Shown piece by piece: positions 4,626 through 59,606 of a stretch of 64,000 bases of DNA. Below the pieces are notes generated by a model, which was given only the letters and a program-made list of their open reading frames with translations, did no database searches and was not told the DNA's origin. Position 1 is the first letter of the stretch. Every line of letters begins with the position of its first letter. The DNA lies in NCBI GenBank assembly GCA_964342815.1, contig CAYFHS010000007.1, forward strand, positions 1 through 64,000, written 5' to 3'. Source of the DNA: an uncultured archaeon. GTDB taxonomy: Archaea; Thermoplasmatota; Penumbrarchaeia; JASLWR01. Position numbers and translations under genes: made by a program.

Positions 4626-5357
4626 TCATAAGTACCGATTCAGCCATTCCGCAGACATATTTACCAGTTTAAGGAGATGTTCCTCACAGCTGTAACTGTG
4701 ATCGGCGCCCTGTATTATCTCCAACCTTTTTTCGGATTGAACATGATCGTACAATTTTTTTGCATGGAGGGGTGGGACCAGGGGATCTCCGCTTCCCTGT
4801 ACGAACAGCACGGGGCAGTGGATCCGGCTCAATGCTTTATCCATTTTCATGTCCCATCTCCTTGAATCCTCCAGAAAATTCATCCCAAATCTAATCCCGT
4901 CGATCTCGCAAGTTCCTGTTTCTAGATATTCATCTTCCAGCAGTTCAGCCATTGAATGCGGAGAAGAAACACTCACAATTACCTTCACACGAGGATCTGT
5001 CCCGGCACGTAATAAAGAAAGGTAAGCCCCAAGACTGCTCCCGAACAGGCCAATTTTTCGTATGTCAAACTGTTGTTCCATATGATCGAGAACCGAAGAC
5101 AGGTCATCCATCCTCTTTGAAGGGACCGAATCCTGCAGCAGACCGTCGCTGCTGCCGCAGCCCCGAAAGTCGAATCTCAACGAATAATAACCGGCTTTCT
5201 CAAGAAGAGTGGAAAGTAGAACCGCCTTTGGACTCATTCTGCTGGCCAGCAGTCCATGGCACATGACGATGCATTTATCACTCTTCTCATATAGCGGTAC
5301 ATGAACTGTTCCTATTATTTTCTCTTTATCTACGTAGATGATTAGGTCCCTTTGCAT
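4626..5357 (-). CDS. Alpha/beta-fold hydrolase
   Basis: 'HGL', 'FDFRGCGSSDG', nucleophile elbow GSSLG, 'GSGDPLVP', 'GADH'. Confidence 0.9.
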   Translation of the reverse strand: MQRDLIIYVDKEKIIGTVHVPLYEKSDKCIVMCHGLLASRMSPKAVLLSTLLEKAGYYSLRFDFRGCGSSDGLLQDSVPSKRMDDLSSVLDHMEQQFDIRKIGLFGSSLGAYLSLLRAGTDPRVKVIVSVSSPHSMAELLEDEYLETGTCEIDGIRFGMNFLEDSRRWDMKMDKALSRIHCPVLFVQGSGDPLVPPLHAKKLYDHVQSEKRLEIIQGADHSYSCEEHLLKLVNMSAEWLNRYL

Positions 5358-5397
5358 CGTTCATCACCACGTTTAAACCCAAAAAACAGCAGAAAAT

Positions 5398-5734
5398 CCC
5401 CGGCTACCGGGGGATGAATGCTCCTGTAACCACACTTGGCGAAGGAGTAGCAAAGCCCAAAGGGGTTTGCGGAGTGTAACGGGCTCCTCCTGTCGTTTCC
5501 GAGGTTGAAATCCACAGATGCATCCGTAGAAAATCCGCAGGTTTTCGAGGATGGAGGCGTATCACCGATGCGTCCGCAGGGGGGTCATCCCTGAGGGCGC
5601 AGCAACGTCGTAGATGTTGCGTAGCGAAGCGTGCGCCGGAACGATAGTGGGCACCTGTAAGCACACTTGCTGAAGGTGCAGGGGAAACTTGTTTCCCCGT
5701 AATGAAATGTGCATCCGTGGGTGATTCATTCATC
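5398..5734. other. Hairpin-dense non-coding element (candidate ncRNA or ssDNA-structured/REP-like element); family and strand not assigned
   Basis: About 9 stem-loops; duplicated motif at 5420-5448 and 5651-5679 with compensatory base changes; ends complementary (GATGAATG 5413-5420 / CATTCATC 5727-5734). Confidence 0.55.
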
Positions 5735-6109
5735 ACCGCGGCTGGAAACCGTCCGTGCGAATATTCCTCCCCGGGGGGCCCAGTCGATCTCCACCGTAAG
5801 CCGGACCGGATCGCAGGCCTGAAATAATCTTTCTGCCATCTCCTCGCAGATGTACTCCTGCCAATTTTTCAGATTACGCCATGATGCAAGATAATCACGC
5901 AAGGACTTGCTTTCCAATAACTTTTCCCGGGGACTATACCGGATATGCACTACTCCCGCATCATGCCTTCCCGAGACCGGACACAGGGACTGGAATTCGG
6001 GATACTCAAGTTCCACATCGGGAGTATGACTCCGTGTGGGGATGGTGATGAGTTCAATCTTTTCGGGTATCTCGGTCCCCGCTTCGGCTGCTTCAGTATA
6101 ATCGGTAAT
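5726..6109 (-). CDS. queF: 7-cyano-7-deazaguanine (preQ0) reductase QueF, type I; probable ATT start at 6109 (ORF track uses GTG 6016)
   Basis: 'PEFQSLCPVSGRHD' with catalytic Cys, QueF-motif-like 'ESKSLRDY', 'PRGGI'. The frame stays open upstream of 6016 (TDYTEAAEAGTEIPEKIE) and GGAGG lies 7 nt before ATT. Confidence 0.85.
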   Translation of the reverse strand: MTDYTEAAEAGTEIPEKIELITIPTRSHTPDVELEYPEFQSLCPVSGRHDAGVVHIRYSPREKLLESKSLRDYLASWRNLKNWQEYICEEMAERLFQACDPVRLTVEIDWAPRGGIFARTVSSRGDE

Positions 6110-59507: not shown

Positions 59508-59606
59508 GCCGGGGTGGCTCAGCCTGGCGGAGCGTCGGACTCATAGGGAACTACAAACAGCTCCTGGGCTATCCGAAGGTCGCGGGTTCAAACCCCGCCC
59601 CCGGCA
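59508..59606 (+). tRNA. tRNA-Met (CAU, elongator-like) with a 25-nt intron at 37/38 (59546-59570)
   Basis: GCCGGGG/CCCCGGC acceptor stem, TCGGA/TCCGA anticodon stem, anticodon CAT 59542-59544; bulge-helix-bulge with C32UCA35 pairing to intron UGGG. Confidence 0.93.

Follow-up and report, generated by a model that had tools for sequence, protein, structure and literature searches.

Between the genes for a QueF-family protein and an alpha/beta hydrolase, the window (the whole 64,000-nt stretch of DNA that was analysed) carries a strongly structured insert, and the question that this locus raises is whether the insert is an RNA, a regulator of its neighbors, or DNA that arrived from elsewhere. 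The original prediction left the choice between a tandem-aptamer noncoding RNA or riboswitch tied to queF and a REP/HUH-type element that folds as single-stranded DNA. Our analysis indicates that the stretch from 5372 to 5730 is very probably selfish, mobile, noncoding repeat DNA, and neither an RNA gene nor a regulator of queF. Both neighboring genes lie outside the element on the minus strand and form a split operon, in which queF (5726-6016, 96 aa; Pfam PF14489 QueF, E 1.8e-18) is the upstream gene and the alpha/beta-hydrolase gene (4626-5357, 243 aa; Pfam Hydrolase_4 and Abhydrolase_1, E ~1e-19) the downstream gene. The QueF-family gene is short and archaeal, and its neighbors in sister species, the alpha/beta hydrolase and a DUF401 transporter, are tightly coupled to it. 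At 59508-59606 (+) the window also encodes a tRNA with a 27-nt anticodon-loop insert of the archaeal intron type (Rfam, 56 bits; missed by ARAGORN in bacterial mode), which identifies the genome as archaeal.

The structural features that had been described for this region are all present. Two copies of one motif, GCTCCT-GTA-ACCA-CACT-TGGC-GA-AGGAGT at 5420-5448 and GCACCT-GTA-AGCA-CACT-TGCT-GA-AGGTGC at 5651-5679, differ by compensatory changes in the outer stem (T-A to A-T) and the inner stem (C-G to G-C), and further by the change of an A.C mismatch to A-T and of G.T to G-C; a repeat search returned both 29-nt copies as one 31-nt direct repeat with 81% identity. Each copy is followed by one A and then by a second hairpin (5450-5470 and 5681-5698). 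Additional hairpins are found at 5398-5412 (CCCCGG/CCGGGG), 5529-5546, 5558-5572, 5602-5620, and 5624-5630 (GCGAAGC), and the ends can form an 8-bp pairing (5413-5420 with 5727-5734). Measured against dinucleotide shuffles, the plus strand of the element folds at -154.2 kcal/mol versus -124.7 ± 5.9 kcal/mol (z = -4.97, 0 of 100 shuffles as good) and the minus strand with a z-score of -3.18.

No Rfam model matched the element at its gathering score, and the only matches in the window at this score are two tRNAs. Between 5250 and 5850, a search at E ≤ 10 returned only a chance match to SNORD82 (14 bits). Readings as SRP RNA, RNase P, or a C/D-box or H/ACA RNA were dropped on comparison with the sequence, likewise with no Rfam match. 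A K-turn was rejected because the GUA/GA loop has no tandem G.A, and a bulge-helix-bulge intron because the junction deduced below would fall within a helix rather than in a bulge of 3 nt.

The orthologous sites of related genomes are empty. In the syntenic DNA of G001 (same genus, contig C144), the hydrolase start runs directly into the queF stop (…CTCCATCATTCATCACCGCG…) with an ATGA overlap, and in G003 (same family, contig C115) the queF and hydrolase genes overlap and the insert is absent too. Since the site is empty in both, the stretch was gained in the lineage of G000, the genome that carries the window. A cis-regulatory tandem aptamer for the queF/hydrolase/transporter operon, sensing for example preQ0 or preQ1, could appeal to the position next to queF and to the two similar stem-loops with their conserved loops. 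However, the element is missing from exactly those genomes in which the two genes overlap, the strand that folds (see below) is antisense to both genes, neither the preQ1 models nor any other riboswitch model matches, and the same units stand about 130 times beside unrelated genes with no preferred orientation. The chance that the element is a riboswitch is, in our estimation, next to nil.

Searches for further copies, with both BLAST and nhmmer, found the motif about 130 times in G000 and recovered it in G001 and G003 as well. What recurs is a unit of ~69 nt including its arms, built from a 6-nt arm a, GTA, hairpin b, GA, a 6-nt arm a', AG, hairpin H1, G(G/T)A, hairpin H2, GG, and a 6-nt arm a''. 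H2 is a 2-bp mini-hairpin with a GNA or ANA triloop. Read from its junction, the unit is CCY-GTA-(hairpin b)-GA-(arm a')-AG-(hairpin H1)-G(G/T)A-(2-bp GNA mini-hairpin H2)-GG-NNN, and the units of the element discussed here are 60-68 nt long. Iterated nhmmer converged on 137 unit matches (132 usable; about 130 units) at 99 loci of G000, many of them at contig ends. Across these ~130 copies, GTA, GA, and AG are nearly invariant, as are G8, T/C9, A10, and G11 immediately before hairpin b. Units lie outside crude ORFs in 82% of cases, while the same ORF measure covers 89% of the genome, and in gaps between co-directional genes 27 units point the same way as the genes and 25 the opposite way, i.e., there is no orientation bias.

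The distribution of the unit is narrow. The pattern CCGTAG-N8-22-CGAGG-N3-CAG was found 47 times in G000, 42 times in G001, and 71 times in G003, but not once in G002 (same family as well) and zero or one time in each of the 33 other genomes of the class; a control pattern one base off register gave 0 to 1 matches. When 185,579 species genomes were scanned, pile-ups among the matches listed occurred only in the archaeal MAGs CAYRFL01 and Thermoplasmatota ETNP2_MAG_1, and the remaining listed matches were singletons, mostly in GC-rich bacteria. ORFs located between neighboring unit loci encode a HicAB pair, a NAC-domain protein, an exosome-type RNase PH/S1/KH protein, and two proteins without a Pfam family; no transposase-like Pfam family was found among the ORFs flanked by units. 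The HicB-like/HicA pair (ORFs 655-888 and 860-1111 of G000:C4:130900-132600) sits between the inverted units C4:131269 (+) and C4:132167 (-) and may be a small cassette bracketed by units.

With the unit defined, the insert can be parsed into a host repeat, H, and four nested units, A to D. The unit HMM matched the element three times (5419-5487, 5570-5637, and 5651-5716), and a fourth unit was recovered once unit B had been removed. The "covarying copies" of the original prediction are thus the a-GTA-b-GA-a' first hairpins of units A and C, and further hairpins of the GTA/GA type belong to unit D (5520-5555) and, with GCA replacing GTA, to unit B (5570-5600). From left to right on the plus strand, H part 1 (5372-5422) comprises the AAACAGCAGAA block, the hairpin CCCCGG-CTA-CCGGGG (5398-5412), and GATGAATGCT; its start, TTTA.., agrees with TTTATCCGCAGGAAACAGCAG in other copies of H, and it aligns to the unit-free H copies C19:38598-38700 and C21:1925-2012 after unit removal. 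Unit A (5423-5485, 63 nt; nhmmer match 5419-5487) is inserted at GCT^CCT of H, holds the first motif copy and the hairpin at 5450-5470, and has empty-site paralogs at C19 and C21 with the sequence ATGAATGCTCCTCCGGTCG. It is followed by H part 2 (5486-5522; CCTCCTGTCGTTTCCGAGGTTGAAATCCACAGATGCA), the 5' arm of the terminal hairpin of H, as aligned with the H copies at C21 and C22.

Unit D enters this terminal hairpin at GCA^TCC. Its 5' part (5523-5572) reads TCC-GTA-GAAAATC-CGCA-GGTTTTC-GA-GGATGG followed by its H1 except for the end of the 3' arm, and is interrupted by unit B (5573-5635, 63 nt; nhmmer match 5570-5637), which is inserted at GCG^(T/C)CC within the 3' arm of this H1 and holds the hairpin at 5602-5620 and GCGAAGC at 5624-5630. 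Removal of B restores H1 of unit D as GGCGTATC-ACC-GATGCGCC. The 3' part of D (5636-5653) reads CC-GGA-ACGATAGT-GG-GCA. The rejoined unit (5523-5572 plus 5636-5653, 68 nt) matches positions 1-68 of the unit HMM with 33.6 bits (E 1.9e-12), and fits the model end to end as well as A and B do. Unit C (5654-5713, 60 nt; nhmmer match 5651-5716, E 2.5e-10) lies beside D at the same GCA^YCC junction and holds the second motif copy and the hairpin at 5681-5698. A direct repeat, TGCATCCGT, at 5519-5527 and 5710-5718 brackets D, B, and C together. H part 3 (5714-5730; TCCGTGGGTGATTCAT) supplies the 3' arm of the terminal hairpin and the conserved 3' end of H, and the same end, ..TGTGGGTGATTCAT, is found in the copies at C6, C3, C1:238k, C22, and C14. 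In total, H amounts to ~105 nt (5372-5422, 5486-5522, and 5714-5730), and the element minus its four units aligns as a contiguous homolog of the unit-free H copies at C19, C21, and C22.

Long paralogs of the element are present in G000 at C6:113778-114052 (84% identity) and C30:47209-47417 (94%), in addition to many partial BLAST matches, some of which are also found in G001 and G003. The C6 paralog has the same nest minus a 46-nt deletion between two GTTTYCGAGG repeats, and the C30 paralog has D, B, and C plus the 3' end of H; judging by these alignments, the composite is copied as a whole elsewhere in the genome. These copies also bear on the 110-aa minus-strand frame that spans 5404-5736, which could be taken for a real gene inasmuch as it is open. 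It belongs to no Pfam family, the 46-nt deletion and a 2-nt indel break it in C6, its closest paralog, and the region is absent in sister species, which leaves hardly any likelihood that it encodes a protein. Other hairpin repeat families host units as well (e.g., C12:42180-42330, C29:17200-17350, and C2:73335-73391). One such host is a hairpin with the outer arms GCGGAATCG...CGATTCCGC, a CCC-GAA-GGG tip, and a following TGAATA, and a second is GGACCTGC-loop-GCAGGTCC. The genome carries a whole set of such interlocking hairpin modules.

The composite as a whole (5372-5730, ~355-359 nt) is flanked by direct repeats, of which the left copy, TCGTTCATCACCACG (5357-5371), is identical at 13 of 15 positions to the right copy, TCATTCATCACCGCG (5726-5740). 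The right copy contains the queF stop codon and shares its first bases with the ATTCAT end of H; in G001 the repeat sequence is present once, as TCATTCATCACCGCG. Compared with G001 and G003, H landed in the 4-nt queF/hydrolase overlap in the G000 lineage only, and with a 12-15-bp target duplication that preserved both the stop codon of queF and the start region of the hydrolase gene: the queF ORF terminates ...G D E stop inside the right flanking repeat, and on the minus strand the left flanking repeat provides GGTGATGAA upstream of the hydrolase ATG. The insertion thus shows how a translationally coupled gene pair can be split by such an element without destroying either gene. On the minus strand, which is the strand of the operon mRNA, 5385-5412 reads as a hairpin, CCCCCGG-TAG-CCGGGG, followed by the T-rich ATTTTCTGCTGTTTTTTG, and so resembles a terminator. 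This tract now separates queF from the hydrolase gene, so that the insertion may have ended the coupling of their expression. The paralogous composites at C6:113680-114059 and C1:86.0-86.4 kb are also missing from G001, and there only 5-6 nt of junction homology with the ATTCAT/TTTA ends of H are seen. The disparity between the 13/15 repeat here and the 5-6 nt at two other H copies suggests that H may move by a different route than the units.

How units enter DNA was addressed by joining the flanks of each unit and searching G000 for the resulting sequence, which gave 38 filled/empty paralog pairs, 17 of them clean. In the clean pairs the insert is 58-67 nt long, mostly 61-63 nt, and the junction microhomology is 1-8 nt, mostly 3-4 nt. 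A start exactly 3 nt 5' of GTA fits 16 of the 17 pairs and is a unique maximum, since neighboring positions fit fewer; the 17th pair is a mis-anchored copy of a fitting case. It should be noted that the pairs are paralogs and not ancestors, that they read equally as insertion or precise deletion, and that several copy one event, so that 16 of 17 stands for perhaps 11 independent events. Pairing with a' changes at the same position: the bases assigned to the unit (CCY and the terminal NNN) pair in 98% and 93% of cases and the flanking bases in 81% and 86%. The left-flank NNN pairs with a' at 81% versus 66% after permutation (0 of 2000), and only the left flank exceeds this control. At C17:76949 and C12:42235, the left arm consists of a target half and a unit half and the right arm of a unit half and a target half. 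These hybrid arms contradict an either/or core swap of the tyrosine-recombinase type with a 6-bp overlap.

From these junctions, each unit would enter as a discrete piece, always at the same phosphodiester, NNN^CCY, 3 nt 5' of GTA(G), and without target duplication; the apparent duplications of 1-8 nt would arise because target and unit end are similar. After insertion, two partners would be open to a', namely the left hybrid arm, made of target NNN and unit CCY, and the right one, made of unit NNN and target CCY; this choice would account for the pair of covarying helices that exclude each other. Targets appear to resemble the unit's own end-to-end junction, NNN^CCY, so that copies would preferentially enter other copies and nests would build up. 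In the proposed step, single-stranded DNA folds, the tagged imperfect hairpin is recognized, and an internal guide forms base pairs 5' of each of the two cleavage sites. We give about an even chance to insertion at NNN^CCY with guide-like matching of the target, a step deduced from sequence comparison.

A process without a dedicated enzyme, i.e., template switching or microhomology-mediated repair at hairpins, would make the junction homology the cause of the insertion. This would be in keeping with microhomology that varies from 1 to 8 nt, with the 46-nt deletion between GTTTYCGAGG repeats at C6, and with the failure to find a transposase in the 89%-complete G000 assembly. Against it, 16 of 17 pairs are explained by a single fixed junction, and it is exactly there that the a' pairing drops, the inserts cluster tightly at 61-63 nt, and the near-invariance of GTA, GA, and AG points to recognition by a protein. 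We regard such an enzyme-free origin as very improbable.

Covariation among deduplicated units bears on which strand folds. Every helix covaries, including the mutually exclusive a/a' and a'/a''; the covariation in the original prediction is real in that sense, but it was found among paralogous mobile copies and not among orthologous RNAs. In a/a', b, H1, and H2, G.T accounts for 4-6% of cells versus ~1% for A.C, and this roughly fourfold excess identifies the unit-sense strand as the folding strand, which at this locus is antisense to queF and to the hydrolase gene. Units also interrupt the stems of other units (B in H1 of D, and D in the terminal hairpin of H). The bulged-G motif of RNA is built around GUA/GA between Watson-Crick pairs, G.T is the best-tolerated mismatch in folded DNA too, and mini-hairpins of the C(GNA)G type, including d(GCGAAGC), are exceptionally stable as DNA and not as RNA.

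A multi-copy family of small structured RNAs, transcribed from promoters of their own or within host transcripts and acting as protein sponges, processing signals, or stabilizers, with protein bound at GUA/GA and with spread through the genome as a secondary matter, would be consistent with several of these observations. The loop E-like core is established for RNA, the fold is strand-specific with G.U four to five times as frequent as A.C, the plus strand of the element folds well (z = -4.97), and a TTTAAA box lies ~25 nt upstream of 5398. However, the units face both ways with respect to genes (27:25), their position is not conserved between species, insertion inside each other's stems would destroy a functional RNA, the H2 hairpins, GCGAAGC included, are of the type that is stable in DNA and not in RNA, no Rfam family matches, and folded DNA tolerates G.T as well. 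On balance we find such an RNA family unlikely. Taken together, the extragenic sites, the lack of orientation bias, the antisense strand, the interrupted stems, and the C(GNA)G-type H2 favor a fold that acts in single-stranded DNA.

Candidates for a mobilizing enzyme were sought in the G000 assembly, which is 89% complete. In it no Y1 transposase (PF01797, including a tblastn search with Y1 proteins of the sister genomes), no TnpB (PF07282), and no reverse transcriptase (PF00078) was found. Y1 genes are present in G001 (two full copies) and G003 (one). They belong to ordinary IS200-like elements with end hairpins of their own that are unrelated to the units, and no unit lies within 1.5 kb of them. 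Y1 occurs in 2 of 3 repeat-bearing genomes and in 4 of 34 repeat-free genomes of the class, too weak an association for Y1 to be retained as the partner of the units. Of the alternatives left open by the original prediction, the REP part of the second therefore stands, as the units are dispersed, intergenic, lineage-restricted, folded from one strand, GTAG-tagged, nested, and polymorphic for presence, whereas the HUH part finds no Y1 gene in the assembly.

One IS200-like element, which encodes a Y1 transposase of 163 aa, was found in two genera but not at the same site (G001:C158 and G003:C1). After its left-end hairpin, CCAGTGCC-TTTA-GGCACTGG, stands ATGAAT. The same hexamer follows the 5' hairpin of H, a match that may be accidental or may point to an origin of H from an IS200-like end. 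G000 encodes four tyrosine recombinases, and no tie between any of the four genes and the units was found. About 320 bp upstream of one of them (140389-141564), in an integron-like locus, a hairpin at G000:C7:140040-140075, CCCTATTTTAAACAGGG followed by GATGA, resembles the CCCCG-TTTTAAA-CGGGG-GATGAATG of H.

To our knowledge, REP-like elements have been well studied only in bacteria, where RAYT is the presumed mobilizing enzyme. In the archaeal lineage described here, each of the three related genomes searched carries 40-70 or more copies of the motif. The unit is more elaborate, its junction is sharply defined, and its complementarity to the target is guide-like; no recognizable RAYT is encoded in the 89%-complete G000. 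It is possible, although less likely than not, that the units represent a new archaeal class of minimal self-targeting mobile element that acts as single-stranded DNA, in which one tagged hairpin and the 6-nt guide a' would set both the unit's own end and its target, and which would be moved by an enzyme other than RAYT or IS200 Y1, such as a new HUH-like nuclease or recombinase or a recruited host enzyme. If the proposed rule is true, altering the 6-nt a' arm could change the target and provide a compact, programmable logic for DNA insertion. For annotation, several ornate-RNA candidates in this genome belong to the same repeat family and should be masked rather than pursued as riboswitches.

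Comparison with known systems places the units nearest to elements that move as single strands. Retroelements are set apart by the missing PF00078 reverse transcriptase in the 89%-complete G000 assembly. MITEs and small palindromic repeats such as Correia, ERIC, and RPE (PMC10969869, PMC3184786) resemble the units in being small, noncoding, structured, dispersed, and polymorphic for presence and absence, and the direct repeat around the whole composite recalls DDE-type elements. However, the units have neither terminal inverted repeats (TIRs) nor a fixed target duplication, H has no TIR, and the 13/15 repeat was seen at this composite only. Integron attC sites, including those of archaeal integrons, likewise fold from one strand into a stem, an unpaired spacer, a stem, and a loop, with the crossover in the 5' arm near the spacer and hybrid arms at the junctions, but the units have no GTTRRRY/RYYYAAC core and no cassette, and are dispersed rather than arrayed by an integrase. 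An integron-like array with a tyrosine recombinase is located on the same contig as the element; a link to it was rejected, as its attC-like sites (C7:143.3-144.7 kb) differ in sequence and layout and have no GTA/GA hairpin.

Elements of the IS200/IS605 group (IS608, ISDra2, and PATEs) insert without target duplication at a sequence-defined site, as the units appear to do. In IS608 and ISDra2, the stretch 5' of each of the two cleavage sites pairs with a guide next to the hairpin, and the same has been proposed for REP/RAYT (PMC3479197, PMC3733652). In the units, a' pairs with the target NNN and the terminal NNN of the unit. They differ in that one hairpin and one guide would serve both ends, with 3+3 nt in a regular helix in place of 4-nt base triples, in that no autonomous copies with the same ends and TnpA or TnpB were found, and in that the left- and right-end hairpins of the IS200-like elements in the sister genomes are unrelated to them.

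Lastly, REP, BIME, and REPIN sequences are associated with the RAYT (TnpA-REP) Y1 HUH enzymes and include a superfamily tagged with GTAG (PMC3733652, PMC3479197, PMC2817692), a tag with a role in both REP/RAYT and IS608 (PMC3479197, PMC3733652). The units differ from REPs in host (archaeal versus bacterial) and in size and build (61-63 nt with three hairpins and a third arm versus a single hairpin of 20-40 nt). Cleavage of REPs falls at C^T, with CT directed by A3/G4 of GTAG, whereas that of the units, as deduced from paralogs, would fall at N^C, 3 nt 5' of GTA. REPs are mainly inverted dimers and the units single, head-to-tail, or nested, and no cognate RAYT gene was found in the 89%-complete G000 assembly. 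The features that define the GTAG superfamily, namely a high-copy, intergenic, imperfect palindrome with GTAG at its 5' foot, are all seen in the units. Like REPs, the units are short, GC-rich, restricted to their species, and clustered in mosaics, their copies often lie inside other palindromes, and they are proposed to act as single-stranded DNA. On these grounds, we read the units as REP/IS200-like single-strand mobile DNA with a guide-like choice of target and a putative enzyme.
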